From: Leucoraja erinacea | Lineage: Eukaryota | Length of the DNA stretch: 64,000 nt | Reading direction: 5' to 3' | Assembly (NCBI RefSeq): GCF_028641065.1 | Contig: NC_073409.1 | Location: forward strand, 434,001 to 498,000 | Part shown: one piece after another, positions 4,248 through 48,710 of the stretch | How positions within the stretch are numbered: position 1 is the first letter of the stretch | How the letters are laid out: each line of letters opens with the position of its first letter | Notes under the pieces: generated by a model | Database searches by the model: none | Told to the model about the DNA's origin: nothing | The model's input: only the letters and a program-made list of their open reading frames with translations | Translations under genes and position numbers: made by a program

Positions 4248-5846
4248 AGTGCATGTTGTCACAAAGAACAGGCCGAATAGTACACAACTCTTTCACAGAA
4301 ACTTTCGTTATTTAAAAGGGGGTTCTCATGCTTGAAATAAACCAGGTTTTCCACTTTAGTGCTTTTATTTATTTAACTTGTCAGAGGGTGGATTTATTAT
4401 TAAAAAGGGAATTACATTTTAAATTATATCACAGGTAGCAAACATGCCGTATCAGAATTAAACCAGATACCCACTTATGAGTTTCTGTTCCAGAATTGAG
4501 GTAAAGTTCCTCTCTGAGGAAATTGAGGAACAAATCTAAGTTACAGGCAGGATAATTTTCTTTTGTGGGGGCTGGGTGGGTATAATATTACTGAACGGGA
4601 AATGATTAAAACCAATCTCAGAACAATGTGTTACGGGAATTTCCAATTTTCCACACAAGTGATGCTCTTTTCATTTTTCCACAAAAGACTGAACTGGAAA
4701 AGACAAATCTGTAACTTGTACTGAAAGATATTGCCTGCTGATTATAAAGTCAATGGAAACTGATACTGAACGAAATACCAGGTATAGATCACTGAAACAG
4801 GCCCTTCAGCCCATCTCAGAGGCCTATTTAAACTGGACCGATTAGCCCATGTTTGACCCACACCCCTCTGAACCATTTTTAGCTTGTTCTACATACACAC
4901 CACCCTCTGTGAAGGGGAACAGTTGCTCCTCTGGTTCCTATTAAATCTTTCCCTTCTCACCTTAAACCTATGCTCTGCAATTCTTGATTTCCCACCCCTA
5001 GGAGCAAAGACGGTATGCATTTGCCCTAACTATGGCCCTCATTATTGAAATCGCCCCTGTTTTCTACTCTCCAAGGAATAGTGCTAGCCTGCATAACCTC
5101 TTCCATTAACAAAGTCCTGTCAACACCCTTGTAAATCTTTTCAGAATTATTTAATGGCAACTTTTCTATAGCAGAGTGATCAAAACTGAACACAATGCTC
5201 CAACTACAGCCTCATACAGCCTAACATCTATGCTCAATGCCCTTGGTGAGGAGGGACCGCATGCCAAGAGCGAGTTGGTGTGGACTCGGTGGGCTGAAGG
5301 GCCTGTTTGTATGCTGGATATCTAAACTAAACTAAACATGCAGTAAATAAACAATACATCTGTTAAAGAAGTAGATGATGGATAAGATGGGCGTGTTCTG
5401 GTTGACCTGCGGGTGGTGGGGAATGTCAGATACGAGCAGCACCATTGTCTGGATGTGTGGCTGTAAGCACATCTGTCCTGTAAATCCACACAGATACAGG
5501 AACATAACAATGCTCTACTGGCAAGTAGACTGTGTTGCTATTGCCAAGAGCTTCCAGCATAGATTCAGTTCTGCACATTAAGTACCTTCTCCATCTCAAC
5601 TATTTAAACGTAGTGGGAATTGAAAGTTTATTTCATAAATTCAACATGGAATGCAAGGCTGTCAAATAGAGCTGGCTTTTCACCTTGCAGTTCCTCGAAG
5701 CAGACATTACACATTGCACTACACAATGCATGCAAATACTGTGGCTGAGGATATGGGTGCACTAAGAATAACACAACATATCTTATTTCTTGTCAGAGTA
5801 CAGAATTGGGCAAAGGATTACAATTTTGAGTAAAACTGTTCAAAGT

Positions 5847-5972
5847 TGAAGAAGGGTCTCGACCCAAATGTCACCTGTTCCTTCTCTCCAGTGATGCTGC
5901 CTGTCCTGCTGAGTTGCTCCAGCTTTTTGTGTCTATCTTTGGTTTAAAACAGCATCTGCAGTTCCTTCCTAC
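5847..5972 (+). mobile_element. Penelope-derived short element, degenerate hammerhead, 12-bp TSD
   Basis: tgaagaagggtctcgaccc...gagttgctccagc...gcagttccttcctac, flanked by ACTGTTCAAAGT (5835-5846) and ACTGTCCAAAGT (5973-5984). Confidence 0.75.
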
Positions 5973-6519
5973 ACTGTCCAAAGTTTTGTTTTTGGTCAAG
6001 GTCTTTCATTTCCCACCGCTTATGTAAATGTTTGAAAATTAAGTAACATACAAGTGAAGTATACTTGCATTGAATTTGAAGTCTTGGGCTTCCAACCTGC
6101 CCTTCCTGCCTCTCTCTGTGATGCCAATATTATTCGAGCACAACAGGAAATCAATAGCTTGTGATACCAGGAGACACTTCCTCAAGCACAAAATGTCTGA
6201 GTAATAATTTCAAGCAAGGCTTCGCCCATTTCCTGGAAAAGGAGGAAAGATTGCTTATCCGAGTCATTCAACTATTTATCCTCTCAGAATGGAATGGGAT
6301 TGGTACATGTACAATGTAGAGAGAGAGAGAGCGGGAGCGGACAGGGCCCTTTCTCTCTCCGCACCAATACTTGTCACCTATAAGGAACCCGTTACAGTGT
6401 TTGCGACCCAGTTGATAGAGAAATCAAAACCTGAATGTGATCTCATCATTAATGACAAATAGCCTGGTGATTTCACTTATAGGGGAAATATCACACTGAG
6501 ATACAATGATACCTTTCCA

Positions 6520-6710: not shown

Positions 6711-7684
6711 CCGGGTACTTGATGAACATTTGAGTCTGATATAGAATGACCAAATAAATTCAGTATGAAATCTACAGGAATGTGTGTCTGGTGTCATGGA
6801 GCCTTGCATCTGTGTTATTAGTGCCTGCGTTATATACATACACATAGAGTTGGGCAACAATGCAACAACTTGTTTACATAAATCACCGTCAGTCAAAGAA
6901 AACATCTCGAACTGCTTTAGGAAAATATTACCGGCTTCAGAACCGAGTCCAAGGATAGGTTTCAAGGAACATTTTGAAGGGCAGGGGAAGAGAGAATTGT
7001 AGAGAGAGAATTCCAAAGGTTCATGCCTTGATGGTTTATGCACAGACAATAGGTGTAGGAGTAGGCCATTCGGCACCGCCATTCAATGTGATCATGGCTG
7101 ATCATCCCCAATCAGTACCTCGTTCCTGCCTCCTCCCCATATCCCCTGACAGGGTCAATGGAGAACTTGCTTCTTGTTTCCGATGGCCAGCACCAATAGC
7201 CCGCAGTGAATCAGCAATGTTCAGTATGGACCACCTGCATTTGTGGATCCTTTGAAGTCAGCAGAAGCAGGTGAATCTTCCCATGGTTGTTGCCAGGAAC
7301 TGTAGCCAAATGTTCTGCCATTTACTCTGTCTATTCAAGACAATGGCTGTCCTACAGAGGGTGGTTTCCACTACATTTGAGGGTGTGGTGGGAGATTTCC
7401 ATCATTCACGTTCATGACCATTGTTTAAAAATCTCCCAAATGAGAATAACTCTGGTGAGCAAAGCCTGCGAATTGGCTTCCCAACATCCTCCCTCTATGG
7501 AAAAGTGGCAACTGGGAGACATTAGGGAACGGGTACATTCCCGGCAATGGATGTATGAAGCTGCAGGCAGTGGGGAGGTGGCATTGTTTAATCTTTTTAT
7601 CCTTCCCCAATTTCCAATTCCTTGCTGATTTAGTGGCCGAAACATGTTAGTTACTCAGCAACAGAATGTCTCCTTGTTGGTATG

Positions 7685-7787
7685 TAGCGGGCAGTGTGTA
7701 ACGGGCAATCTGTAACGGGCAGTGTGTAACGGGCAGTGTGTAACGGGGAGTGTGTAACGGGCAGTCTGTAACGGGCAGTGTGTAACG
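7685..7787. repeat. 14-bp minisatellite (aacgggcagtgtgt), ~7 copies
   Basis: Directly visible tandem repeat. Confidence 0.9.
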
Positions 7788-10700
7788 AGTATAATTTGAT
7801 AGTTAGATTCATAGTCATAAAGCATGGAAACGGGCCCTTTGGCCCAACTTGCCCAATGCTTCCCAAAATGCTCCATCTATGCTAGTCCTATCTGCCTGTG
7901 TTAGGCCCATGTCCATTTAAAACATTCCTAGCCATGTACTTGTCCAAATGTCTTTTAAAGGCTCGTGGGTATAATGAGGATGTTTCTGAACGTTATAGAC
8001 AACACAGCCGGAGAGGAATAAGTCTCAATACATGCAATCAGTGAAATCTAAAAGCACATATTCCTCAGAACAACCCCCGCCTGTGGAAAGTGCTGACAAT
8101 GTCCTGTTTACTAGTAATGAAATATGATTACATTGTAAATAAAATACATTGGAAAAAACTAAAAGGCTCAAAACAAAAGCTGATGACAGTCCAGAGACAA
8201 GGATCTGCAGATGCTGGTTACTGCACAAAGGGGCACAGAGTGCTGGAGTAACTCAGCGGGTCAGGCAGCATCTGTGGAGAACATGGATAGGTGATGTTTT
8301 GGGTCGAGACCCTTCTTCAGACTGATTGTAGGGGATTGGGGGAAGGGAGGGCTGGTAAAGAGGACCAGCTCTCTTTACCAGCAAAGGGCAAAGTGTGGCA
8401 GGAAAGCCCTAAACTGGATATCAAGTGAGTTGTAGGCAATGAAGGTAGATGCGTTCATTGCCCTCTGCCTGCTGTGACCATCTATCTATCAGCCGCTGCC
8501 CTGACTCAGGTGGAAGTGGATTGTTTTATACTGTACACTGTATGGGTAAATATGACGGAGTTTGTGAAACACACATACACTGAGGCAGGAGCAACTACTG
8601 GAGAAGCAGAGGTGGTTCCAGCCCCAGCCCAGTAGTGACAGCCCAGTGCTTTCTCTCTCAAAGCTCTGATGTGGATTTCATTATCTCTCTCCACACATTT
8701 CCTTTACTTGGAAGTTGTGCGGGTCTGCCCAGCTGATGGTGGGCTTTGGCTAGAATTACTGATCCTTTTTCTGGTGAAATTGAAAGAATGTTTTTCCCGT
8801 TTCATTTGTTAAATGTTTTTTCCAGTTCATTTCTCAAGAGTTGGGTGTTGATGGCAGGGCCAGTGACAATTGCCCTTCTCCAGCTGTGCTGGGCACTGCG
8901 GCTGGAGAACAGCGATATAGTTTAAAGTGATTCAGTGAAGGATTTGGCTACGATGTGTGGAGGATGCTATTGGATAAAGTCACACAGTGAGTGACTGAAC
9001 AAAGTAAGGATGGTTTTCATTTGAAAAAAAAAATTGTTTAAAACCAAAAACTTGATCATCATGCGGTCAGATTGACCCATCCTGTTTTAAAAAATAAATT
9101 GTATATAAATAATCAGCCTGGCGTTGTGGAATTTAAACTCTTGTTTTCTGGATTATTATCTCGTCGCTTGGCCCTTCTCTCAAATCTTTCTCATATTATT
9201 CAATAATTTGACTGTTACTTTTCCACCATTTTATTCAATGTCCCAGACCCCAATGATAAGAAATGTAAATGATATCCATGCCTGTGGTCAAAGATGTATT
9301 AAATTTAAAAGAAAAGGACACAGAGTGCTGGAGGGCTTGTAAAATGAGAGTAACCTGCTGGTGTAAATCATTGGGTGTGATGCTTACGTTTTACTTCTGA
9401 TTGGAGATGAGAATCCCATGAGTAAATTTGGAATTGGACAAATAATAACCAGGGCACAGATTGTAATCATGATGTGGAGATCCAAAGTCCTTTGCCAATG
9501 GCTCAGTGTGAGTTGGACTGACCAAAGATCTTTGGTACTGACCAAGGCAGCCGAGTGCTGGAGGACGTATACACTCGTTCCTCAACTGCAGTATGGGTGA
9601 GGCATAACGGCACTTCATCCTCATCCATCCAACTGGCCCAATTGTCCATGACGGAAGTTATCCAACCCATCTTCCGTTTCATTTGGTGTGGTGTGGCAGT
9701 GCCTATCGGCAGTGACTCGACTACAGTCTGTCGGGGATGGGACCCAACAGGTCCCCCTTGATCTAGTAAACTTTGATATTCAAAAATATGTCCCATTTTA
9801 CTTGAGGAAGGGTTGGTATCTGCCCTGGTCTCCCTCCTCCATAACTTCCATTGCTGCCCATTTGTATTTGGTAGAGCTTCTGTGAAGTGTTTTGGTAAGT
9901 TTGCCCTGAAAGGCACCACATAATTGTAAGTGGTTGATGTGAAAGTCAGACATCTGTGTGAGTTAGCGGTGAGAACACAGGAGCTGCCTCTGACTGCAGT
10001 GATCACAGCTCAGGCCTGTTGATGGTGCTGGCAGGTGCAGCATGTGATCCAGCAACCCTGGGTGTGTTGCTGCTTTGGGACACAGTCCCACCTGACAACT
10101 GCCAGTAGAATCTCACAATTAGTAAGAAATACATTCAGCGTGGAATGCCTCCTTACTGGACCATCTCGGCATAAATTATTGCAAAATTAAAAAGACTAAT
10201 ACAGTTCCTTTCATGTTCCACCTCAAAATGTCAAACGAATCAAGTCCCTTTCACTCTTCTAAATTGTAGTTGAAACAACATTAGCAGCCCAAACCTCTCA
10301 TTGACAGGGAGGAATCTTGGGCTGTTTTGAAAGATCCGTTAAAGGCACTAAACCCTATACAACTGCAGTAGAACCTCCCTGCTCCTATACTCAAATCCTT
10401 TTGCTATGGAAGCTCTCTTTCTTTCTGCTCATCTTTCCAGAGTCCACCTCAGAAAAAACAGCTTTACGTTTGAAACACCTCCCTCTCATGGTCATTTAGA
10501 AGATCCGTTAAAGCAGTAGCTCAGAGATTCCCTGCTCATTCAGAGTAGAGAAACAGCTTTACCCCTCCCTCTTGTCAGAAGCAAAGCAGAGTGGACACAC
10601 TCACTCCCACTGCAAGTGTCGACTTGATTTCACTTTAGGCCTGGATACCATGGTCAGATCCACGGAGATCAGAGTTAGGCTGTGGATCTGACACATGTCG

Positions 10701-11652
10701 ATGTTTGCACCATTTCAGTGTCAGCCTGAGAGAACCTTTCAATTCACTGTTTGTAAGGAACCATTCTGCTATGTTAACACTTGGCAAGTGTGCATTTCTA
10801 TTTTGTTAGAAGTTCAATAGAAATGATATTCTGAGCTTAAAGTTTTTGGGCAATTGAGTTCTGAATTGTCCTCATCAGTTAAGTATGAGCATGGGACTAT
10901 TGCTATTCTCAGTGCCTGCCTTCTGACCCATACACTCTGCACTACTGTCATGTCACAGTGTTTACTCAAACACGAGAAACACTATCCTTTCCAAGCCCAT
11001 CTCCTCCATACTTGTGTCCTGTCCAGATGGCTACTCACTCTTGAGTTTAGAACTGGTGTTTTTTTCTCACCCGTCCTTAGTAATTTCCACTTGCTGTGTC
11101 CGGCGAATGATGACCCCTGATGGTATTCTCGTCTCATTATACATGAGATTGTGATATTTGCCACCAATCATTTGATATTACTCCAAGATAGATTAAAATA
11201 TAATGTTTTCCTCTCATGCCGATTTTCCACATTACAGGGAGTTTGCTGAATTCCAGGAATGTTAAAAAATATTACATTGGATTAATATCAAAAAATGTCT
11301 TTGGAACTAATGCTTTAACAATGCAGCAATGGTGACAGACAGAAAATGCTGGAGTAACTCAACGGGACAGGCAGCATCTCTGGAAAGAAGGAATGGGTGA
11401 CGTTTTGGGTCGAGACCCTTCTTCAGATGGTGTATAAAGTGTATGACTGCTTTAAGCAACACTTTTATAAACGACACTGCACTGTGATTCACCTTTCAGT
11501 TTGCAGACAATGAACATTAATGTATACTTTGTGAAAGACAGTCAGGAGAACTGCAGAGGTGGGAGATTGCAACCTTCACCTGGTCCACCCTGTCTCGATG
11601 GATGCAATCAACCTGGCGTGCACAAACAGAAGATCAAACAGAATAAGTTGTC

Positions 11653-11752
11653 TCAGTCTGAAGAAGGGTTTCGGCCCGAAACGTTGCCTATTTCCTTCAC
11701 TCCATAGATGCTGCTGCACCCGCTGAGTTTCTCCAGCCTTTTTGTGTAACCC
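11653..11752 (+). mobile_element. Short non-autonomous Penelope-derived element with a minimal hammerhead ribozyme motif; 8-bp TSD
   Basis: CTGAAGA-A-GGGTTTCGGCCC-GAAAC-GTT at 11658-11685; flanking direct repeat AAGTTGTC at 11645-11652 and 11753-11760. Confidence 0.75.
11654..11690 (+). ncRNA. Minimal hammerhead ribozyme-like motif (Penelope pLTR type)
   Basis: Core boxes CUGANGA and GAAA flank a GGG/CCC stem II. They are followed by palindromic ACGU (a stem III that can only form in a dimer) and a GUH triplet. Stem I is only ~2 bp, so activity is untested. Confidence 0.6.
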
Positions 11753-12405
11753 AAGTTGTCTTACAACTTTAGGCTGTGCACGGTGTACAAAAGAAGAAGA
11801 AGGAGAACTGCAAGGATACAGCATTAAACACTCAGGGGCAAACACCCCTTTGGTCTATATTTGAGTTTTTAGTGAGGTTGACTTGGTCCTTCTGTAAATT
11901 CCTTCCTTTTACATTAAAACGCTCATTTTTCATCATCTAACTATAGATCAACTGTGAGATATTTCCCACGTGATCTTAACATTCACAAGCTGTCTTTTTG
12001 ATTTATTTTATTTTGACCCTATTCATAAAAATCCTTAAGACCAAATATCTGCCCATGTTTGCCTTCTGTACATCTCAATGTGCTTGATAATATTTATTTT
12101 ATTGTGTTGTTGGTTTTCCCATCCCTCCCCCCTGAATGTACTGTTTCATTAGGAGTGGTTTGGTCCAGGTTTTCCAGATGATGTTATGATGGGTGTGGTG
12201 GTTGGGCAGGAGAAGCAATAACATCAACCTAAGCTGGAACTATTCAGGATGCCTATTTTACACTGTTTTAGTTTACTCTCCAGCAGCCTCGATGGAAGCT
12301 GATGTTAACATTTTGTAATGCCACTTCTCTAGCCCATCGGTAACTCATCTGTCATAATTAACCAGGTTCCCATGATAGAGAACCTCACTGGATTTATGTG
12401 TAGAA

Positions 12406-12810
12406 CACAGAGTGCTGGAGTAACTCAGCGGGTCAGGCAGCATCTGTGGAGAACATGGATAGGTGACGTTTCACAGAGTGCTGGAGTAACTCAGCGGGTC
12501 AGGCAGCATCTGTGGAGAACATGGATAGGTGACGTTTCACAGAGTGCTGGAGTAACTCAGTGGGTCAGGCAGCATCTGTGGAGAACATGGATAGGTGACG
12601 TTTCACGTCGGAACTGGCTAGTGATCCCACCTCTTCTCCAGCTTCCACCCCCCCCCCCCCCCCCCCCCCCCCCATATTGCAGTTAGTCTGAAGAAAGTTT
12701 TCCGACCTGAAACATCACCTATCCATGTTCTCCACAGATGCTACCTGACCCGCTGAGTTACTCCAGCACTTTGTTTTCTATGCAAGATTCCAGCATCTAC
12801 AGTTCCTCGT
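12406..12810. repeat. Three tandem 66-bp Penelope-derived units plus an inverted copy
   Basis: The unit cacagagtgctggagtaactcagcgggtcaggcagcatctgtggagaacatggataggtgacgttt occurs three times (12406-12603), followed by a poly-C run and an inverted copy at ~12684-12810. Confidence 0.85.
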
Positions 12811-13524
12811 ATCTCTTGGTTGAAACTTGCCTTTTTAAACATCCAACAAAACCGTTGTGATGCAATGATTGTAGCTAAGAAACTCAGAAGAGGCCTAACA
12901 TTGGACAAGGTCCTTATTCTTAAACCCTAACTTTGGCTGTGACATTCACTGGTATGATATCACAGAGCTACAGGGTGGTATTGCCTAATGCTATGAATTT
13001 AAAATACTACAGGAGGCATTTGAAACTCAACAGAAGCGACAGGTGAGAACGTTTAGTTTGCTGTTGAATCTTGTGGCTTCCAGTTTTACCAGCAATGTTT
13101 CAGGAAGAGGCTGAACCTGAAAAATATTTAGACAATACTGGCTGTCTCTATGATTTAGATAAGTTGTTTATAATCATAGACTAAGATTGATGATAGTGTA
13201 GAAGGAAGTAACGTGACCAATGGCGCTTGTGTCCACAATGTTTCACCCCCTTCAACTATTTACCCAAATTGTTTTGAAAGTTTTATTGAATCTGCGTGCA
13301 GTCAGTGCGCTCCAAAATCAAGTCATTCTCCATCCCACCCCTTGCCCCCACTTCTTTTGTCTCTCTGCTCACCGATTCTTCAACCCTCCTGTCTTTTTAT
13401 CTCTGGCCTTTGCCCAGCCATCTACATATCAATCCCCCCTCTCACCTGTATCCACCTATTACTTGCCAGGTCTTATCCTGCCCCATCTACCTTGCATCCC
13501 ACTCCTCACCACAATCAGTCTGAA

Positions 13525-13880
13525 GCCCATTGAGTCTACTCCTCACTCAATCATGGCTGTTCTATCTTTCCCTCTTAACACATTCTCCTGCCTTCTCCCC
13601 ATAACCCCTGAAACCCGTACTAATCAAGAACCTGTCAATCTCCGCTTTAAACATACCCCATGACTTGGCCTCCACAGCCTTCTGTGGCAATGAATTCCAC
13701 AGATTCACCACTATCTAAATAAATTCCTCTTCATCTCCTTTCTAAAGGTACGCCCTTTTATTCTGAGGCTGTGCCCTCTGGTCCCTGGCTCTCCCACGAG
13801 TGGAAACATCCTCTCCACATCAGCTATATCCAGGCCTTTCACTCTTTGGTGAGTTTCAATTAGGCCCCCCCTCATCCTCA
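13525..13880 (-). mobile_element. CR1/HER1-type LINE 3' end
   Basis: MRGGLIETHQRVKGLDIADVERMFPLVGEPGTRGHSLRIKGRTFRKEMKRNLF. Confidence 0.85.
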
Positions 13881-15369
13881 GCATCGATACATCAAAATCT
13901 ACCATGAAATCTGTCATACCTGCCGCTTCTGAATGACTGAAGCAGGTACTCAAGATTCTAAGTGCCATCCTTATTGTTCTTTCTGCAAAGAAAGACACAA
14001 AGTGCTGGAGTAACTCAGCGGGTCAGGCAGCATCTCTTGGAACGGGGATAGATGACGTTTTGGGTCGGGATCCTTCATCAGACTTTTTCTTTCTCTAATT
14101 TAATTGTCATGGGCCAGGGATTCCCAGCAGTTGTACGTACGTTGCATGTTTTGATGGAGGACATCCTTGAATCTTCTCCTCGTCTGCCTGCTGTGACAGA
14201 GTAAGGGACGGAGTGTCTGGATCCGACACACAGCCAATGTGATCTGCTCACTGGAGTGAGAGAGAGAACATTGGTCAGTATCTCCACACGGTTTATAAAA
14301 CAACGTTCTTTAGAACAGGCAGGAAAACTGAAAGGAAGGTGAGCAGGACATGTGAAACTTGAAATGTACAGGTGATGGTTACCAACTTTGTCATTTGGAT
14401 TCTATTATTTTTTTTACATACAGTATGTATTAAAAAAATAAGAAACATTTAAGTGCATTTTTATAGACAGTTCTTAAACTATTTGATCAGATATTTGCCT
14501 CGCGTGAAAGAGTGTCCACTGACAAACTGCAGGTTATTTATGGTGACTACTGATGCCTGACGGTTCTGCCTCATGGCCTGTTTACCAAGGATATTTCTGC
14601 CCATTTTAGTCAAGGTGTGGTCCATTTCCTGGGCAGACGCAGTGCAGAGCTGCCGTCTAACTCGTATCCTGCTGCATCTGAGCATGCATAAACTCTGCAG
14701 ACCTCATTGTTACAGTAAAGCATAATAACTAAATAAAATATGGCCATCCTACAAACAGCTCAAGAAGTCAATCAAAGTACAGTGGCCCCATAAAGCTCTC
14801 TGGCCATGGTACATATTACTCATTAAATGCAAAGACTACAGGGCAATGTTTAACAGAACATAACAGTTTATATTAAATAATGTCGTTAAACAGGTATTCA
14901 GAATGTATGAAACTCTGAAGATTCCCCTCCACTCTCATTCCACCAACCTCTCTGTATCTCCATGAAGTCTATGAACTTACTGCTCCCTGCATCGCGTACA
15001 AGGATGAATGTGAAGGGGGGGAGGCTTCTATTGAGAGAAGACAGGCAGATGTTCCCATTTGGGTTTGGGTTAAACCCTTTGGGTTTATATTGTCTCAACA
15101 ATTCCAACCCAGTTTATCCAGTTCCATCTTGAATATTACAATTGAATCTGCCCCATAGCTATCCCTGGGACAAGAGTCCATGTCATATCCACTGCTGTAT
15201 ACAATATTTCCTCATGTCACTGAAGGGTATCTTCATTCTATCTTCTCTGGTTTTGACTCTTCCATCAGAGGGAACAGTTTTACTTTATTTTGTGTATGTA
15301 CTTTATCATTTTAAATGCCTGCATCAATCACACTGCCTGATAGTGAAGGGTTATATGAAGGGTTTTTTC

Positions 15370-16025
15370 CCAAAACATCACCTGTCCATTCCCTCCACAG
15401 ATGCTGCCTGACCCGCTGAGTTACTCCAGCACTCTGTGAAACGTCACCTATCCATATTCTCCACAGATGCTGCCTGACCCGCTGAGTTACTCCAGCACTC
15501 TGTGAAACGTCACCTATCCATGTTCTCCACAGATGCTGCCTGACCCACTCAGTTATGGTGCAGCAGCATCTATGGAGCTAAGGAAATAGGCAACGTTTCG
15601 GGCCGAAATCCTTCTGGAAATAGGCAACGTTTCGGGCCGAAATCCTTCTGGAAATAGGCAACGTTTCGGGCCGAAACCCATAAGGGTTTCGGCCCGAAAC
15701 GTTGCCTATTTCCTTAGCTCCATAGATGCTGCCTGACCCTCTGAGTTACTCCAGCACTCTGTGAAACGTCACCTATCCACATTCTCCACAGATGCTGCCT
15801 GACCCTCTGAGTTACTCCAGCACTCTGTGAAACGTCACCTATCCACGTTCTCCACAGATGCTGCCTGACCCGCTGAGATACTCCAGCACTCTGTGAAACG
15901 TCACCTATCCATGTTCTCCACAGATGCTGCCTGACCCGCTGAGTTACTCCAGCACTCTGTGAAACGTCACCTATCCACGTTCTCCACAGATGCTGCCTGA
16001 CCCGCTGAGTTACTCCAGCATTTTG
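15370..16025 (+). repeat. 66-bp tandem array interrupted by a palindromic insert with 34-bp subrepeats
   Basis: Repeated gaaacgtcacctatccatgttctccacagatgctgcctgacccgctgagttactccagcactctgt. The 34-bp repeats start at 15582, 15616 and 15650. Perfect 30-bp arms at 15650-15679 and 15684-15713. Confidence 0.88.
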
Positions 16026-16802
16026 TATTTTGTGTCACATAACGTCTGTACCAGAGAAAACAGCCTCAGTTTCTTCAACAAAAACTTCTCTAACAGCCCT
16101 TCATCCCACAATCATTTCAGTAAATCACTTCTGTGCGTTCTCTAAAGCCTTTACGTCATTCATAATGAGTGCCGCCTAGAACTAAACATAACAACCCATT
16201 TGTGACCTTGCCTGTGTTTTGTAAATGTTCATTGTGATATTCTTGCTCCTATATTTATGCCTCTATTTATAATGCCTGGAACCCCATATGTTTTTTCACC
16301 ATTTTATCATCCTGCTCTGCCACTTTCATTAAACCATGCAAGTATATCTCCAGATATCTGTATCTGTACACTTTCTGGAATTTTGCCCTCTTGTTTATGT
16401 GGCCGCTCTCCCAGCCAAAATGTAACTGTTCCCATTTCACAGCATTATATTTCATTAGAGATTGTTTGGTGTGGAATGTCATTCAGGAGTTGAGTGGATA
16501 CATCATTAATAATAGACACAAATCCAGCATTCTGAGTTACTCCAGCACTCTGTGAAACGTCACCTATCCATGTTCTCCACAGTTGCTGCCTGACCCGCTG
16601 AGTTACTCCAGCACTTTGAGACGAGTCAGTATTTCTGACAAAGGTTGTTATGGAAATATAAGTTGACTTACCGTCTCATCATCTTCAGCGCTGTGCTCTG
16701 CAAGTTTCTCCGACAATGCATAGCCAGCTAAGATCAAGTGTCGTGTCTGAATGCGTCTCAATTGTAGAACAACAGTGGACAAGTCAGGCCCACTCATGGT
16801 GG

Positions 16803-17090
16803 CCTGCCTGTCTGACTCTGCCTGTCTGTCTGATGCTGCCTGTCTGACACTGCCTGTCTGATGCTGCCTGTCTGATGCTGCCTGTCTGACACTGCCTGTC
16901 TGATGCTGCCTGTCTGATGCTGCCTGTCTGTCTCTCACTGCCTGTCTGATACTGCCTGTCTGATGCTGCCTGTCTGTCTGATGCTGCCTGTCTGACGCTG
17001 CCTGTCTGACGCTGCCTGTCTGATGCTGCCTGTCTGACCTTGCCTGTCTGACGTTGCCTGTCTGATGCTGCCTGTCTGATATTGCCTGTC
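16803..17090. repeat. 14-bp minisatellite (ctgcctgtctgatg)n running into a Penelope-derived element
   Basis: Directly visible; continues as cctgtcccgctaagttactccagc... Confidence 0.9.
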
Positions 17091-20384: not shown

Positions 20385-20830
20385 GAAAGGTTCAATGGTC
20401 ACCTTACTTCTAAATGCCACACCTACACTGACCTCTTCAGCTGCATCCTTGCCTACTATCGTAGTGAGGCTCAATATAAACAAGTGGAACAACATTTTAT
20501 CGTCTGTCCGGATGCTTTGTGTCCCTCTGGAATAAATGTTAAATTTTCAAACTCTAGGTAGACTATTTTTCTTCTCAGTTCCCATTATTACACCGATGTA
20601 GCTTACTTACCAAATCTCTGCAATATACCCCCTAATGATCAGTAGTCCAGCTCTTTATGTCCAATCTCCATAGAGTGTTTCACCTCCCCCCAGCTCGGTT
20701 TTGAAGACTAATCCCCTCCACTCTTCCCCCCGATTCTGAGGAAGAATCCGGGACCCAAAACGTTCATTGGTTTCTCTTTCCATAGATGCCGATCGACTGG
20801 CTGAGATCCTGCAACATTTGTGGTTTTTGC
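20385..20830 (+). mobile_element. Degenerate Penelope 3' remnant
   Basis: HTYTDLFSCILAYYRSEAQYKQVEQHFIVCPDALCPSGINVKFSN, then a degenerate ctgaggaagaatccgggacccaaaacgttc motif at ~20736. Confidence 0.6.
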
Positions 20831-21655: not shown

Positions 21656-22629
21656 GGCCTGGCCTGACATTCTCCTTCAAGGCAAGGGACCTCTACTATC
21701 GCTTACATATTCCTGGACAATATGTGTCAAACAACCCTGCTTTCATCGTCAAATTCTTCCATTTCTCTGTTGTCTGTTATTGTTCATCATTTTGTAGATT
21801 CTGTTTTTGGTCAAAACTGCTGAGTTTCATCATTCGATTCTTCCTATAAGTTCATCAACACAGATTTTCCTGTTGTATTGTAGCCGTTCTGGCCAACATT
21901 CCCATGGCAACCTTCACTCACTGTTCTATTCTTCCAGTTTTGCTCACTTTGTATTCTCTGTTTGGCTTCATGTTTGCTTCCTGTAACGAAGATTTAAATG
22001 TTATTTTTAATAATACATTATTCTTTTAAATGAGCCCTGAATTTACCACATACCTCAAAGTGGTTACTTGTTTAAATTAAAGAGTGTTGTCACCAAAGAT
22101 GGTTGTCACTGCCATGAGGGGGGGGGAGGGGGGGGAGGGGGGAGGGGGGGGGGGGGGTCGCCTACAATCTGTAAGAGACCATGAGAAAAAGTTCATATTT
22201 CCAAACATATAAACATATTTCCACACTCCATAATTCTACTCATAATAAAAACCTTGTGACAAATCTTTTCTCACCATTGTTTCAGGAATTATATACCAAC
22301 TATATACCAAGGCTTAATCCATAGGCTGGCAATATCAGCTGCCTGAGGCTTTTACTGCATCCAGCTCTGAAATACCCCCATTAATATTAATAGAAGATTG
22401 TGGCACTGCATGCTACGTAATGCAGACAGGTTATTTCGAGATTTTCTTTTCCCTTATGCCAGTAATGACTAAATCTTTACTGCAGAAGCTATTTTTGGCA
22501 AGGAGTAGATTGCTAAAATCAGGAAGTGGCTGTTTTCAGCGTATGTGTTAAATTGCCACCTGTTCTGAAGAAACTTAAAGCATCAAAACTTATGTAACAT
22601 ATTTAAAAACACAACAGAAACTACTCGAG

Positions 22630-22892
22630 GTAGCCAAAAATGCTGGAGGAACTCAGTGGGTGAGGCAGCATCTATGGAGAGGAGGAAATAGGTGAAGTTT
22701 CGGGTCGAGACCCTTCTTCAGACTGATGTCGCGGGAACAGAGGAAGAGGCTGAGACAGTTAGCTGTGGGAGAGCTGGGAAGGGGAGGGGAAGGAGGGAGA
22801 AAGCAAGGACTACCTGAAATTGGAGGTCAATGTTCGTACCGCTGGGCTGTAAACTACCTGAGCCAAATATGTGGTGCTGTTCCTCCAAGTTG
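22630..22892 (-). mobile_element. Penelope-like element 3' fragment (GIY-YIG C-terminal remnant plus pLTR hammerhead motif)
   Basis: The minus-strand translation NLEEQHHIFGSGSLQPSGTNID matches the typical PLE ORF end (LEEQHLIFRLGSLQPxGxN). It is followed by cagtCTGAAGAagggtctcgacccGAAAC at ~22697-22725. Confidence 0.75.
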
Positions 22893-23035
22893 TGAATCTG
22901 TGGAATTCTATGCCACAGAGGCCAATTCACTGGATGTTTTCAAGAGAGAGATTTAGCTCTTAGGCCGAATCAAGGGATATGGGGGGAAATCCAGAATGGG
23001 GTACTGATTTTGGATGATCAGCCAGGATCATATTG

Positions 23036-25170: not shown

Positions 25171-25712
25171 ACGGGTGTCAGGGGTTATGGGGAGAAGGCA
25201 GGGGAATGGGGTTAGGAGGGAGAGATGGATCAGCCATGGTTGAATGGGGAAGTAGACTTGATGGGCCAAATGGCCTGATTGTGCCCCTATCACATGATCT
25301 AGATGCCTCAACCATTGGCTGTGCTTTAAGTGGGATTCTTCTTCTCTGATGAGTCAGATGTCAGTCTATGTTGAGATGCAGCCTGATTCAGGAGGACAGA
25401 CTGCCACTGAATGAGGGGATTGTTAATACTGTGTACAGCTACATAAAGATCTTTGTGGTTTCACCACACTGGCATGTGACAGGAAGACACCGTTGACATT
25501 GATGAACATTCTTGGGGATGCTTCATTTGCTACATGCATAGTGATGAGGACACCCATGAACTGGAAGGTCCAGCAGGAGCTGTAGACGTGGGCAACCGCT
25601 CATGCCAACTGGTGACATCACAAGCAGAGCTAACAAACTGTCTGCCTTGACATCGGTCACCTGTATGTTTCTGGGTGGACAATGTTGACATCCTGAACAT
25701 TTCTCCAGTAGA

Positions 25713-25810
25713 TAGACACACAAAGATGGAGTAACTCAGCGGGACAGGCAGCATCTCTGGAGAGAAGAAATGGGTGACTTTTCGGATCGAGACCCTTCCT
25801 CAGACTTCAA
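25713..25810 (-). mobile_element. Penelope-derived short element, 11-bp TSD
   Basis: Same family in reverse orientation; TCTCCAGTAGA at 25702-25712 and 25811-25821. Confidence 0.75.
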
Positions 25811-26574
25811 TCTCCAGTAGAAACTGGAAGGATTGTAAGGCAAACAGATTGATGGGAGTGGTGACTTGATAGCCACTAATTTTCAATTTGCCGACAGACA
25901 TCTGTGGGAACCTTTTGTGACACTGAATCTTGTGAGACCACGTAGTTTGTTACGTCAAGGAGACATATCCAATCTGTGCAGGAAGGAACTGCAGATGCTG
26001 CTTTACACCGAGGATAGACACAAAAAGCTGGAGTAACTGAGCGGGTTAGGCAGCATCTCTGTAGAAAAGGAATAGGTGACGTTTGGGGTTGGGACCTATC
26101 CAATCGTGTAGGAGGATGTAGCCTTTAGCACACTGCACCTCTCTCTTTCTTCTCACTTTACACTTACAGGTTTGGGTGTAGTAAGCTGTGGTTATTCCTG
26201 CAGTTCCTGCTCTCCCTGGTTCTTCTCCTGTCATTGTTAATCTTAGTTCTCTTGTGCGTCCCAGCATGCCTCCTCTGCTGAGCGATCGATCAGAGACCTC
26301 AAGTGGAGATGAGTAGTAACTACCTTCAGCGTTTCAAAATAACCTCCAAAATTCACAAAATTACCTTCCACAAATTCAATGAACAAAATCTTCTGTTTGA
26401 TTCTTTGCCAATTACTCAATCGCATGGTACATGGGTTTCTTTGTGGCTGTGGGATGTGAGGTCCTGCTGGTGCTGGCATGGGTTTCTTTCATGTGTTTCC
26501 ATTTTATTGGGAGCTTTCAGGAAGTTGGGCTCACAATGTCGATGTTGCCCAAAGACACCATCAGGTCAGATCAT

Positions 26575-32014: not shown

Positions 32015-32330
32015 GGCGTTCGGTCGGGCCGTTCCACCCAACCCCGCTGCCCGGGTGCCGTAGCCCAGTCATCCCACTGCCCGGGCCCGAGGCTTTGCAC
32101 TAGGCCTTGCAGCACTAGGCCCGTTGCCATGGCAGCGCCGGCGCGGGTCAGAGGGCGCCGTGTCCGGTTGCCGTGGCGACGGGACGCGCGGGCCCGGCCT
32201 TCACTTGGCCGCCATGGGCGAGAGGACGTACAACTCGTCCGTGTTGCTCCACAACTGGTTCGAGGACATCGCCTTGGATCAGGTGAGGAGGCCGAGGGAC
32301 AAACATGGGGCACGGCTAGACCTAGAGCGG
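32015..32330 (+). promoter_or_regulatory. CpG-rich CFAP161 promoter/5'UTR with two RFX X-box motifs (GTTGCCATGGCAGC 32123-32136; GTTGCCGTGGCGAC 32167-32180)
   Basis: GC and CpG rise sharply relative to the flanks. Both motifs are near-palindromic matches to the RFX consensus GTTGCCATGGCAAC, which is typical of ciliary gene promoters. Confidence 0.8.
32214..32282 (+). CDS. CFAP161: CFAP161 coding exon 1 (MGERTYNSSVLLHNWFEDIALDQ)
   Basis: Strong Kozak context gccgccATGG; donor CAG|gtgagg; 69 nt, phase 0. Confidence 0.93.
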
Positions 32331-35300
32331 AATCCCCCCCACCCCCCCCCATGTTTGCCCTCACCCCCTCGTCCTCCCCCCTCACCCATTCTCACCCTCT
32401 TACCCCCCCTCCCCATCCCCCCCCCTCACCCTCCTCCCGGTCCTACCCCCCTCCCCCCTTCGTCCCCCCCCTCCCCATCCCCCCCTCACCCTTCTCCCCG
32501 TCTTACCCCCCCGCCCCCCCTCATCCCCTCCTCGTCCCCCTCCTTCCCTCCCCCCTCACCCATTCCCCCCCTCTCACCCCCCCCCCCCATCCCTCCCTCA
32601 CCCCCGTCCTCCCCCCCCCTTCACCTCCCCCTCACCCATTCCCCCCTCACCGTCCTACCCCCCCTCCCCCCCTCACCCCTCTTCCCCCCCTCACCCATCC
32701 CCCCCCCACCCATTCACCCCCCCCCCTCCTCCCCCCGCCCCCCCCTTCCCCTCCCCCTCACCCCCCCTCCTCCTCCCTCACCCCCCCCCCCTCACCCCCC
32801 CCCTCACACCCCCCGTCTCCCACTCCTTCCTTCCCGTGATAATGAAATGCAGGATCTCCTTATTGAACAAGAAGGTGGGGATATAAGGCACGGAGTTGTA
32901 CAGAATGAATTAAAGGGATATTTTACTAATGCAAAAATATATATTGTTTACATTGTCATTGTATCAAGATACTGTTCTTAATTGTCTACCTTGAGCTCTG
33001 GAACATTTTAAATTTAATTCAATCTTAACTGAAAGCATATTGGACAAACCGTTAGATGTAACAATAAATACTTAATGACTTCATTTAGCTATTTTGGAAA
33101 GCAGTTGTTTGTGTGCCAGCCGCAATGTATAAAGGGGGCACGCCCAGTAGTGAATGTGTAATTCATCAAATTCCTAGTATATTTGTTTACAGAAACAAGA
33201 GAGCACTTACTGGAATGCAAAACCTCGGTCAATAGTCATCTTTCCAAGTTATACATTGTATATTTTGAATTTGGGTAACGAACATAATCAATGTCTGAGC
33301 GTGACTTCCTGTAGAGCACAATTTGTGATGTTTTACTGAATTACCGAAGTTGCTGTAAAATTGTGACATCGCTAAGAATCCCATGAAAGTAGGCCATACA
33401 CTCAGAGTGAGTCTTTGGGAAGGTTTTTCTGGGAGCTTGTTTTCCATGCTAATGGCAAATGAAACACATCTTTTTTATTCCATAATTGCTGTAGCATATT
33501 CCCAGACTTTACTGTGACAAAGACTGTTTCTTTTCCCAATAAATAACTTGTTAAACTGACCCACAATTGCCACCGGACACCTCAATTAAATGTTAGAGAG
33601 GATGCTGCTCCTTTGTACTCTCTGGGTGGAAATCTTTCACTGGACATTACTTCAGTTTATATAGGCCAAAGCTCACTTTATTGCCTATTGCAGTTATTTT
33701 GGTTTACTTGCAATCTCGACCGTTCTCACTGTAACATAGATAATTCCACAACTCTTATCAAGTAAGCATGTTTAATCTGTCTAATTTTTACATGGGTGTT
33801 GTTTATATCTGTAAAAATCTTACCACATCTTATGTTTCCTTGTGATAGAAACATTTAATATATTTTGTTTTTGTTGGTCTATAAATCTGAATTACCTCAA
33901 ATGCAGCAATGTGAAATTAGAACCCAATGTTCAGTACACAGACCCCATCTAGTGGTTGTTTACAACAGGACATTATATAAAGATTGTAGGAGAGATTAAG
34001 TTTTTTGCTATTTTTATAACAAATGCTTGATACTGTCGTGGGTGGATGTTGATACTTGGGTAATGGAGAAGGGTAGAGGTGAAGTCAGTTGGGAAACAAT
34101 TGGGAGGGGTTAGTGGATGATAGTGGATACAGTAGAAGGGACTACAGACATGGAATGTATGGAGTGCATAATGGAAGTGATCACCAAGACTAATATTGTA
34201 AACGAATATGTAAAAGCGGATGAAAGCCTTGGATTGTCTTTACACCTAAAGGCTCCTTCAATGTGCTTGAGCATCGTCTGACCCCTGTATGACACTAGAC
34301 AATAGATAATAGGTGCAGGAGTAGGTCATTCGGTCCTTCGAGTCAGCACCGCCATTCAATGTGATCATGGCTGTTCATCCCCAATCAGTACCCCGTTCCT
34401 GCCTTCTCCCCATATCCCCTGACTCCGCTATTTTTAAGCCCTATCCAGCTCTCTCTTGAAAGAATCCAGAGAACCTGCCTCCACCGTCCTCTGAGGCAGA
34501 GAATTCCACAGACTCACCAATCTCTGTGAGAAAAGGTGTTTCCTCGTCTCCGTTCTAAATGGCTTACTCCTTATTCTTAAATTGTGGCCCCTGGTTCTGG
34601 ACTCCCCCCAACATCGAGAACATGTTTCCTACCTCTAGCGTGTCCAAACCTTTTGTTTCCCTCTCATATGGAATCAGAATGCTGTAATTGTCAGTGCAAA
34701 TGGCCCAACCTTGGAAGCTACAGACAAAAGTGTAGAAAGGAACTGCAGATGCTGGTTTACTCTGAAGATAGATACAAAATGCTGGAGTAACTGAGCGGGA
34801 CAGGCCGCATATTACCCATTCCTTCTCTCCATCTCTAGATGCTGCCTCTAGTTACTCCAGCATTTTGTGTCTATGTTTGGAAGATACAGGTTGGGGCACC
34901 TTCCACACATCCTTGTGTGCATTCCAGTGTTCTGGGACTACTTCAATATCAGGGTGATAATATATGCAATACTCTGGCAAGCTGTGTTGAGCAACAAAAG
35001 AGGGCGGAAGTTAATTTCAGAGGACTCTTCTGCTGATTAAGTACCTAGAATATCATCTTATTATGCTGTCTGTGTGGAGTTAGTACATTCTTCCTGAGAC
35101 TTTGCGAGGGTTTTCTCCGGGTGCTCCGGTTTCCTCCCACATTCCAAAGATGTGCAGATTTGTAGGTTAATTGGCTTCTGTAAATCCTAGCATGTAGGAT
35201 AGAACTAGTGTACTGGTGATCATTGGTTGGTGCGGACTCGGTGGGCTGAAGGGCCTGTTTCTACGCTAAACTAAACTTGCTTGCAGCAGCATCACTAGCA

Positions 35301-38300
35301 CAGAGACTCAGACAGCGCACAGAAACAAAAATTATACATAAATTACACAAATTCTGCAAGACTGTGATAAGAAAAAGACTGCAAAAAGCAAGACTTTGGT
35401 GTAAAACGCATTTAGAAAACAAGTCGGTGGTAGTGCAAGGGGTGATCCATTCTGCCGTGATACAACCACTCTGTACTTTCTACAGTGCTTCTGTAGAAGT
35501 TTGTTAGAGTATTCGGGGACATGACAAAGAAAGTAAAGGTGTGATTACATGTACAGGTACGTGCTGGGCCCAGGGCAAGTCACCTGAGGTGTTGATACCC
35601 AGGAATGTAAAGCTCCTAATTTTCTCCACTGCTGACCCACTAACGAAAACCTGTAACAGACCACCTTTGTCTTGATGCTTTATTGATTAAAAAAATACTG
35701 TGTAATCTTAACAGTTTATAATCAATTGCTTTGCATATGTGAATGATGGGTTAAAATTGGCCATGGTGGAGATGCGTTATTACGTAGAGTTGCAACCGTT
35801 GTTTGTTAGTTATTAAACTTCATCCAATTGTTGTGTAAAAACATGCTACCTCTACCTTTAAAAGGACAGAGAGCAATTTTCCATGTTTTAGAATGTCTTT
35901 AAAAGTATTCACATGATGTTATGTTTGACATGCCAATAAGCAATGCAAGCATATCAACAACTAAAACAAACGAGTCCTTGTGACAGCCAATGTTAGCCAA
36001 TTTGAGTGTTCTTAAGTTCCAAAAGAGATAGAAATAAGGATCTGAATGAAACTAATGATTCATTTTCCAATTGGCTTTGACTTTGGCATAGTCTCAAGGA
36101 ATGGATTACCATACTGTGACACAGTAACTATGGGATCTGTATGAAACTTACTAGAATCTTACCTTGGCCATCTTTGTGAGGTCATGAAACCTATATTGCT
36201 CTCTGCAGTGATTTGGCTTGTCCTGAAGGTTTTTGCATATTCCTTCAGATGGCCTGCAATACTCTTTCATTGATGCATTAGAAATCTGGGTGGATGTTTT
36301 CAGTTCTTCAAATTCTCGACGTTGCAGTTCATTCTGACGTCTTCCTAATAAGTGATAACGATCTATAACATCCATTAAAGGATATGCTGGAAAGATATTT
36401 GGCCCATTGCAGCCACTCCCCACTATCTCTCTCATCATCTCCAGCAATGGTACACTAACAGGATGGATTTCCCTATCTTGATGTGATGCCTTGTTGGAAG
36501 TTGTGGATGGGCAAATGTTACAACTGCTCCACCACATATCAATCAATGTGACGGAAGTTCAGGCATGACGTGAAAAATTGTCTCTGGTGACTTGAAGTTG
36601 TATTTATAGGGCAAGTAAGACAGAACACAAATGCTTCTTTAAAATATATCTTGCAGGATGTTCTTAAAGACTTCATTAACAGGAAGGAACGTGGCGAGCT
36701 TTTGATGCAAAAACTAGGATCTTTTAAAGATGATCTGCTGAATAAGGTGACCAATCTAGTTTAAGTATTACCATATTTATCTTAACTGTTATTTTCATTA
36801 ATTATTGAGTGTACTTTTAGAATCATGACTTTGTCACTGTAACAATTACAAGGTAATTTATTTTTACTTTGTATCTACAAGACTGCTTTAACTAAAATAA
36901 GCTGTTCAAATCTATTTGCTGTGGAGGTGATAAAATGAGCCGTTACATATTGTCACCTTTTGCCGGTTCATGGCATTATAGGTTGGGAGGCGTGACTCAA
37001 TGCCAATGTTTAAACCAGCTGTTTCACCTGTACAGTTGGGGAAAATTCTGCACCTGTTATGATTTGTGTTACCTCACAACAGCTTCATCTTACATTCATA
37101 GCACAATGTAGAGTGCATCAAAGGCCATTTAGCTTACTGATCTTTTTTCTAAAAGGTGCAAGTACTTTGCAATGAAATTACCTATAAATGCCCTCCAGTT
37201 AATGTTGAGTACAGAAACAACATTTGCAAGCCTCTGGCATAGATTATAAAACGGAGAAGCTTCATGTCTATGGCTCCTGCCTACTACCTACCTGCCTACT
37301 ACCTACCTGCCTACTACCTGCCTACTACCTAGCTGCCTAGTACCTACCTGCCTAGTACCTACCTGCCTAGTACCTACCTGCCTAGTACCTACCTGCCTAG
37401 TACCTACCTGCCTAGTACCTACCTGCCTACTACCTACCTGCCTACTACCTACCTGCCTACTACCTACCTGCCTACTACCTACCTGCCTACTACCTACCTG
37501 CCTACTACCTACCTGCCTGTACCTGCAGTACCTGCCTTCCACCTGTGGCTTGGTGCTTTCCATTTCCCTCAGTTCATCCTTGTGTTCTGAGTGTCTTAGC
37601 TGCTGAGTGCCAATGATATTTCCATCGTTGAACATCCATCAATCTTTGTCCTTATTTCTGGGTTATCATGGGTAATGTTTGGGACAGATAATGATGTTGC
37701 CATTATTCCCAAGAGGAAATGCTAACGATGTAAACTTGCCAGTTTTAGTTCTATTTCAATACCAGATTAGACCTCATTATCAGCATCACTGCCTGTCCCG
37801 CTGAGTTACTCCAGTATTTTGTGTCTTAGTTTGGTTTAAACCAGCATCTGCAGTTCCTTCCTACACTCTTCCCATTATCAAAGGTCAGTGTATTTGCATA
37901 TCTCTGCAATCTTGTATACATTTGCTCTCCAATAGCCTTCCCACTAGTCAGCAGTGGTGTGATTGCACCTTCTGTGTCAACTCCTTGACCTTTTCAGGAT
38001 GCCCTCTCTGCAGTATTGCCATATTCTCTTTAATCAATACTGCTGTTTACCACCTACCATCACAGAAACTGAATAGAATCAGCTCATTAAATCATAACTT
38101 CTGAGGCTGCAATTAACTTCAAGGTCTAATTATTCCACAGGGATTATTCAACATTAATATAGGTTGCAAATCTTGTCACCATGGTCAAACCCAAATTCAT
38201 GTGAGGATCATCATGTCTTTAATTACATCGATCTACAGTGTGAATATTTACACTTTATAGTCACTAGTTAAACTAATTGTGTGCCATTTTTATGCAATTT

Positions 38301-48304: not shown

Positions 48305-48710
48305 TAGAAACAAGGAACTGCAGGTACTGGTTAATACACAAAGGACACAGAGTGCTGGTGTAACTCAACGGGTCAGGCTGCATCACTGGAGAACACGGAC
48401 AGGGAACGTTTCGGGTCGGGTCCCCTCCTCAAACTGATTGTAGGGTCTAGACCTGAAACGTCACCTATCCATGTTCTCCACAGATGCTGCCTGACCCGCT
48501 GAGTTACTCCAGCATTCTGTGAAATGTCACCTATCCATGTTCTCCACAGATGCTGCCTGACCCACTGAGTTACTCCAGCATTCTGTGAAACGTCACCTAT
48601 CCATGTTCTCCACAGATGCTGCCTGACCCGCTGAGTTACTCCAGCACTCTGTGAAACGTCACCTATCCATGTTCTCCACAGATGCTGCCTGACCCGCTGA
48701 GTTACTCCAG
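48305..48710. repeat. Penelope-derived element followed by an inverted array of four 66-bp units
   Basis: Element at 48305-48440 on the minus strand; tandem units at ~48455-48710. Confidence 0.85.

Follow-up and report, generated by a model that had tools for sequence, protein, structure and literature searches.

Our analysis indicates that the 99-bp insert at positions 11654-11752 (+) of a 64,000-nucleotide stretch of Leucoraja erinacea DNA (contig NC_073409.1; hereafter the window) is likely the ribozyme-bearing terminal repeat (pLTR) of a Penelope-like element (PLE), provisionally of Neptune type, pasted into the genome as a stub of 95-135 bases. Rather than an RNA parasite in its own right, excised by ribozymes, the insert is likely an ordinary by-product of the element from which it derives. 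The explanation that we favor, and regard as probable, is that such stubs are products of the Neptune-type PLE's own enzyme, working on uncut RNA from two internal priming sites. The focal insertion comprises the following features:

11645-11653, + strand: left target-site duplication AAGTTGTCT, read from the sequence
11654-11752, + strand: focal copy, a solo, tail-less end piece (pLTR) of a PLE, provisionally Neptune-type
11656-11687, + strand: minimal type I hammerhead motif fitting the published consensus, with the predicted cut between 11685 and 11686
11753-11761, + strand: right target-site duplication AAGTTGTCT, read from the sequence

The element is abundant, as the original prediction had stated: its letter pattern matches 13 times with at most two mismatches in the 64-kb window, against a mean of 0.03 in shuffles, and an nhmmer search with a profile made from 14 copies returned 66 pieces amounting to 4,637 bp, or 7.2% of the window. 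Recurrence on both strands is likewise borne out, all 12 positions listed earlier falling within these 66 pieces. The clean target-site duplications described at three solo copies are real, and their lengths are 9, 13 (with one mismatch) and 11 bp; at the focal copy the 9 bp that we measured is one more than the 8 bp given before. More generally, 8 of 32 insertion units, the edges of which were placed by eye, are flanked by a duplication scoring at least 9, against 0.023 for random window pairs, and these eight include the three solo copies just mentioned. Apart from the focal insertion, three copies serve as reference points:

5835-5985, + strand: solo copy with a tail and a 13-bp duplication (one mismatch; 5835/5973), starting inside the CUGA box
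8195-8332, - strand: copy with native upstream sequence and a tail of about 40 nt
25702-25821, - strand: solo, tail-less copy with an 11-bp duplication (25702/25811), starting at the A of AGTCTGA

The focal copy opens with C-AGU-CUGAAGA-A-GGGU-UUCG-GCCC-GAAA-CGUU-GCC, in which CUGAAGA occupies 11658-11664, an unpaired A 11665, stem II 11666-11677, GAAA 11678-11681 and CGUU 11682-11685, the palindrome ACGU of positions 15.2-16.2, which gives no stable stem III, lying at 11681-11684. Both boxes are exact, and this intact minimal type I hammerhead core is predicted to be a ribozyme. The PLE minimal hammerhead consensus, NNN CUGANGAH G..C GAAAN palindrome NU H NNN (PMC4209133 supplement), shares with it CUGANGAH, G10.1-C11.1, GAAA, the C-G palindrome and UH, so the identification of a PLE-type minimal hammerhead with a palindromic stem III holds. 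Stem II is kept as a pairing, as had been noted, and is formed by 4 bp and a 4-nt loop (GGGU-UUCG-GCCC or GGGU-CUCG-ACCC) instead of 3 bp and 6 nt; among the 22 copies extending as far as the CUGA box, its pairs form in 15-20. Helix I consists of no more than two pairs, present in 16/22 and 17/22 copies, and a third forms in 4/22. Some 2-bp helices I, opposite-strand pairs and mostly solo motifs are also found in PMC4209133, and the combination seen here, U-A or U-G plus G-C, is weaker than the two G-C pairs of the 2-bp cases in that collection.

Across the same 22 copies, conservation is 0.96 at 10 non-CpG core positions, 0.84 at 56 body positions and 0.64 at the free N7; the core exceeds the body in a comparison biased upward by the use of a profile that includes the box to pick the copies, and one 10-nt run of the body is as high as 0.92. 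The full core CUGANGA...GAAACGUH is kept in 2/22 copies, the focal one among them, and both the CUGANGA and GAAA boxes are intact in 7/22. At position 16.2 the base is G in 11/22 copies and A in 8/22, and at G12, which follows a C, 9 copies have G and 10 have A, a pattern of CpG decay. The helices pair in 78.6% of cells, against 7-45% for slid partners. Two checks of the kind proposed along with the original prediction gave no positive result: the covariation score of the stems was reached by 43 of 500 shuffles, and the Rfam covariance models yielded no hammerhead match in the window, the six matches to E 1 being all to microRNAs, below gathering scores and coincident with the inverted composites described below. 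Folding gave no significant z (0.25 and 0.62 for the focal copy; about -1.2 to 0.6 for six of the seven sequences and -2.1 for one), and the free fold of a dimer did not take the ribozyme shape. We consider the motif to be real and likely kept under selection in source elements, with most genomic copies decayed. Published minimal hammerheads cleave poorly even as dimers (PMC4209133), and the motif of an anole PLE cleaves only with its own protein (PMC11167929); the ribozyme described here is predicted to cleave only as a dimer or with protein help.

The parentage of the stubs can be read from longer copies and from remnants of coding sequence in the window:

20400-20822, + strand: older PLE copy, with a GIY-YIG C-terminal remnant (20400-20564) followed by a decayed hammerhead (C3 at 20736)
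22630-22900, - strand: longer 5'-truncated PLE copy, with a GIY-YIG C-terminal remnant (22823-22900), a pyrimidine-rich spacer, the hammerhead (C3 at 22721) and the body
40458-40591, - strand: PLE GIY-YIG C-terminal remnant, frameshifted
59535-59660, - strand: PLE GIY-YIG C-terminal remnant with one stop, used as protein-search query

Upstream of the copy at 22630-22727 lies a pyrimidine-rich stretch and then a frameshifted frame that ends like a GIY-YIG protein. By tblastn, remnants of the endonuclease end were detected at 22826-22900, 20400-20564, 40458-40591 and 59511-59657 (E 1e-3 to 5e-11), the first two followed by a hammerhead copy at a distance of about 100-170 nt. The motif had been said to sit directly downstream of a PLE ORF at 22630-22892; the adjacency stands, and the ORF remnant is limited to 22823-22900. 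Given that the motif fits the PLE consensus, is non-coding and lies downstream of endonuclease ends, the element was most likely inserted by a PLE RT/GIY-YIG enzyme, in agreement with the original prediction.

Homology searches place these remnants among RT plus GIY-YIG proteins of cartilaginous fishes. The remnant at 59535-59660 gave 14 phmmer matches, six of which were looked up (five from rays, skates or the whale shark, and one unrelated archaeal repeat protein), and a second protein search gave six longer proteins, five of them new, with GIY-YIG in 5/5 and RVT_1 in 4/5 of the new ones, mostly at weak Pfam scores. The whale-shark protein P0015 has C-x4-C-xx-C in its linker and CxxC in the GIY-YIG motif. 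The linker motif is common to Neptune and Nematis and is taken from the relative P0015, and the Neptune-type assignment is therefore provisional. A C-terminal GIY-YIG domain, a CX2-5CxxC linker in the closest longer relative and 5' truncation are shared with Neptune-clade PLEs (PMC8557442, PMC3846280), whereas the copies described here, unlike the PLEs of those papers, are mostly reduced to the last 95-135 bp. In the zebra shark, the read-through end of P0016 gives a weak match (best E 0.005) to the hammerhead region in translation, which suggests that the motif follows the ORF in this relative too. Searched against the 64-kb window, the five longer PLE proteins matched endonuclease ends only and no PLE RT part, and no parent PLE with the exact pLTR was found in the window. 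No match was obtained with Pfam for the four short remnants, or in a word-index protein search with a 42-aa remnant.

Other coding sequence was also noted. A reverse transcriptase fragment at 50701-51099 (-; RVT_1 E 1.8e-11) is unmatched by the PLE proteins and is likely a LINE. The public ray and skate gene models P0003, P0006, P0008 and P0011 end in the endonuclease C-terminus of this PLE fused to unrelated host proteins, and these fusions are probably mis-predicted last exons. Two exon-like frames, at 32145-32240 (+) and 59935-60345 (+), have no Pfam match; they may resemble CFAP161 and the N-terminus of pro-IL16, respectively.

The position of the copies relative to the predicted cut bears directly on how they arose. 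The cut lies 32 nt inside the focal copy, and a cleaved RNA would begin at 11686; 0 of the 66 pieces in the window start at the cut (profile positions 31-36). Instead, copies begin up to about 30 nt upstream of it and retain the whole ribozyme, and the description of the element as ribozyme-bounded is not supported. The match to native upstream sequence is 5 nt or less in 17/22 copies, with a mode of 3 nt (6 copies, which start at the A of AGTCTGA); 4 of these 17 (12688, 20736, 24575 and 27064) have pyrimidine-rich upstream sequence that may be diverged native sequence. Both in the window and in many reads, 5' ends cluster at the A/G of TC-AGT-CTGA. An earlier statement that one boundary falls within a few nucleotides of the CUGA box is accurate in location, a location distinct from the cut site. 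Two further junctions were observed. Just upstream of the 40726 copy, at 40810-40875 (-), part of stem II is present once more as a short fragment, together with a small stretch in inverted orientation, which suggests that the 5' junction of that copy is rearranged, and a PLE upstream spacer at 13350-13526 (+) ends right after CAGTCTGAAG and gives way to another repeat, the reciprocal of the usual stub.

The window also contains four 66-bp tandem arrays found by TRF, as well as composites in which array units are joined to inverted pieces:

12406-12606, - strand: 66-bp tandem array with internal units from G12
15355-16028, + strand: composite of 66-bp units, inverted pieces of the focal subfamily and more 66-bp units
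48440-48710, + strand: 66-bp tandem array, one arm of a head-to-head pair with 48310-48436 (-)
61433-61769, + strand: second composite, its internal junctions shared with 15355-16028, its flanks unrelated

The existence of tandem arrays and the intact focal core speak for a retrozyme, an RNA cut by two ribozymes, circularized and re-inserted via rolling-circle copying, and PLE-pLTR-related retrozymes have been reported in vertebrates, one cartilaginous fish included (bioRxiv 10.64898/2026.07.22.740005). We nevertheless regard a retrozyme origin as very improbable. No piece begins at the cut site, and helix I has 2 bp. Internal 66-bp units start at G12 and have neither CUGANGA nor stem II. In four arrays the first unit extends into stem II, which is impossible from a 66-nt circle; such a circle was considered as the array source and rejected for this reason. 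Nor did two raw-read RNA runs show a read-end pile-up at 22693/22694, the cut site of the 22.7-kb copy, in fragment libraries that are weak for this purpose; an RNA end at the cleavage position had been suggested as a check on the original prediction. Retrozymes are recognized by at least two consecutive tandem units with a complete ribozyme (bioRxiv 10.64898/2026.07.22.740005), and since the tandem units here lack half of the core, the term retrozyme-like is not supported. In this regard, the element resembles non-LTR retrozymes (PMC7229834; bioRxiv 10.64898/2026.07.22.740005) in being non-coding, in its type I hammerhead, in its relation to PLE pLTRs and in occurring as monomers and arrays, and differs in that each retrozyme unit is described as having a complete ribozyme and as giving cleaved monomers and circles, while our units have half a core and ends away from the cut site.

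Separately, 34-bp tandem units at 15582-15676 and 61546-61635 are built from the stem II-GAAA-palindrome segment found in the focal subfamily, in inverted orientation, and form hairpins with weak scores against microRNA models. Unrelated minisatellites were found at 57142-57628 (9 bp), 37276-37518 (15 bp), 16804-17090 (14 bp) and 7683-7787 (14 bp).

The 3' ends and the arrangement of neighboring copies point to the probable explanation stated at the outset, copying by the PLE enzyme from two internal sites. Among 54 pieces with an intact 3' end, 19 are tailed (about 40 nt), 22 are short and 13 are internal to arrays, and thousands of reads on the tail-less 22.7-kb copy run on into the tail, with loose ends at 22628 and 22637. 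Neighbors are oriented head-to-head in 10 cases and tail-to-tail in 2, both of the latter inside composites, and in 7 of 8 non-composite head-to-head pairs the tail is on a single arm. One duplication (score at least 9, 11-15 bp) surrounds 3 of 9 pair units, which implies that those three pairs are single insertion events:

90-314, both arms: head-to-head pair in one 14-bp duplication, with a tail on one arm
34713-34889, both arms: head-to-head pair in one 11-bp duplication (one mismatch), with a tail on one arm
46438-46672, both arms: head-to-head pair in one exact 15-bp duplication, with a tail on one arm

An optional tail of about 40 nt, an inverted 5' partner and duplications of variable length are thus all present, and an inverted 5' partner, an optional 30-40-bp tail on one end and 8-10-bp duplications are known features of PLE insertions (PMC8557442, PMC3846280). 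In predicted folds of the tailed copies 8195-8326 (-) and 40086-40215 (+), the tail sequence CAGCAUCU pairs with AGAUGCUG in the body, at a z that is not significant; this modeled pairing is a candidate protein-binding or priming structure.

Alternatively, the stubs could be what is left of longer insertions shortened by deletion or recombination at the DNA level, the cause to which solo pLTRs without duplications were ascribed in a rotifer (PMC3846280), and 24 of our 32 units have no duplication scoring at least 9. This account seems to us highly unlikely, in that stubs of 99-140 bp, like inverted pairs, are bordered immediately on either side by duplications, and random loss would not fix the 5' end within a few bases.

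A stronger competitor is an independent SINE-like family, in which a few short masters are transcribed alone and mobilized in trans by PLE proteins. ORF-bearing ends are far fewer than stubs, and pLTR sequences alone were reported to suffice for trans mobilization in a rotifer (PMC3846280). The arrays and composites are also compatible with such masters. A total of 14 near-identical 66-bp junctions at 5 loci follow one pattern, and array units are no more alike within arrays (2.2 differences per 52 nt) than between them (1.9). Complex junctions are common to the composites at 15355-16028 and 61433-61769, whose flanks are unrelated, which implies that at least one structure without an ORF, or else the 5' end of some longer master, was copied en bloc. 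On balance we find a SINE-like family improbable: the same 5' end occurs in at least two subfamilies, and in each of them other copies reach further upstream, which argues for a repeated process and not one master; the upstream half of the initiator-like motif discussed below is missing from copies that start at the A; and the unique flank of the single locus examined (22480-22605) has zero RNA depth.

Reads mapped onto 22480-22895 with an 80% cut-off locate the same 5' end. In the bulk RNA run X24, the ribozyme is covered by about 8,000 reads per strand and the ORF end by about 230. This step is an upper bound, since sequence from upstream in other subfamilies does not reach the 80% threshold. 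In this run, 2,298 reads leave at 22724 (A) and 1,784 at 22723 (G) into unrelated flanks (agreement 0.37 and 0.32), and 2,814 more leave at 22726, partly into the upstream sequence of another subfamily; the DNA contigs of X1 also have a loose-end peak at 22724. None of the 24 loose ends listed has an adapter-like consensus. The raw RNA reads examined were oligo-dT and single-cell, and they revealed no site on 22480-22895 where many RNA molecules begin or end, the proposed start included. Because there are no such sites and the unique flank of the 22.7-kb locus has no RNA reads, copies that lie within host transcripts are the most likely source of the reads. An extra G before the A, as a cap would provide, is present in 1 of the 6 A-starting copies, where it is supplied by the inverted partner.

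Additional observations concern the same region. In the single-cell run X22, 22690-22703 has 19,572 reads on the + strand and 2,553 on the - strand, which carries the element, while the bulk run X24 is balanced; this may reflect intronic copies being biased towards the antisense orientation, priming within the purine-rich strand or genuine sense RNA. A joint between 22687 and 22793 on opposite strands is present in 352 bulk RNA reads and absent from the other three runs, and is probably one highly expressed transcript with an inverted PLE end. At 22722-22812 (-), and also near 40460 and 27578, the ORF stop carries a GT that resembles a splice donor, and there is a pyrimidine tract as well as a CAG just before TCTGA, a layout resembling the D. 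virilis Penelope intron that ends at helix I. The idea of a splice site at the 5' end is not supported, as no intron ends were found among the 15 joints listed of 98 and the consensus at 22726 is the upstream sequence of another subfamily.

Copying from internal sites by the parent's enzyme would accommodate these features in the following manner. By analogy with the anole PLE, the enzyme would nick both strands of AT-rich DNA and start copying the RNA internally, at two points on the 3' side of the ribozyme; the two priming sites would give the short and the tailed ends, and extension of both strands would give the inverted pairs. The ribozyme would be copied uncut and decay after insertion. 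In the anole element, Poseidon PAc, the tail is set by a pair of internal RT start sites 3' of the ribozyme, and both strands are cut and extended (PMC11167929); we liken these two sites to the two classes of 3' ends seen here. As in our proposal, the template of PAc is uncut RNA, and no RNA-seq reads end at the cut site of PAc (PMC11167929), just as none pile up at that of the 22.7-kb copy in the two runs examined here. PAc belongs to a different clade, and its ORF starts in stem II (PMC11167929).

Why copying should stop at one point is a separate matter. We take TCAGT to match the initiator consensus, with the A as +1. This match, together with the expectation that a polymerase would encounter no fold there once it is past the 3' strand of helix I, leads us to prefer a start of the RNA at the A of TC-AGT, at an initiator-like site that would lie in the upstream pLTR. 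We give this step slightly less than an even chance. The stubs would then be run-off copies of the first 100-135 nt or so of the transcript. An initiator-like TCACT was noted in a rotifer pLTR (PMC3846280). Two findings speak against this step: no RNA start was detected, and the start site of D. virilis Penelope is further upstream, at 46 nt plus a 75-nt intron from the ribozyme (PMC4209133). It is also possible that the fixed 5' end results from a polymerase stop or from endonuclease trimming at the same point.

Several elements of this picture are already known. Minimal hammerheads of PLEs, their solo abundance and their opposite-strand pairs were described in 2014, with thousands of mostly solo motifs per genome attributed to truncated PLEs (PMC4209133), and the link between retrozymes and PLEs was made in a 2026 preprint (bioRxiv 10.64898/2026.07.22.740005). 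The Figure S3 list of PMC4209133, in the form available, contains no cartilaginous-fish motif; the preprint, in its available parts, sampled one cartilaginous-fish genome, and its cartilaginous-fish entries could include this family. Within the literature searched, which covered few subscription papers, there was no prior description of skate or shark Neptune elements or of a fixed 5' end at the ribozyme.

The remaining value of these observations is mechanistic and concerns the role of the PLE ribozyme. The stubs are abundant, their 5' end is sharp, their 3' ends are of two kinds and some of them are inserted as pairs; they offer many natural integration products on which the model of two-site internal priming could be examined in vivo. 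In its most complete form, which we consider rather doubtful as a whole, our proposal would make the stubs a genome-wide footprint of Neptune PLE self-copying, in which the +1 A lies three bases before the core, the ribozyme caps the RNA and would clip its first 31 nt, two-site internal priming yields run-off copies, one per DNA strand, hence head-to-head pairs within one duplication and with a tail on one arm, and ORF-less composites move as units. If the 5' end is truly the transcription start, this would explain why solo ribozyme motifs far outnumber PLE ORFs.
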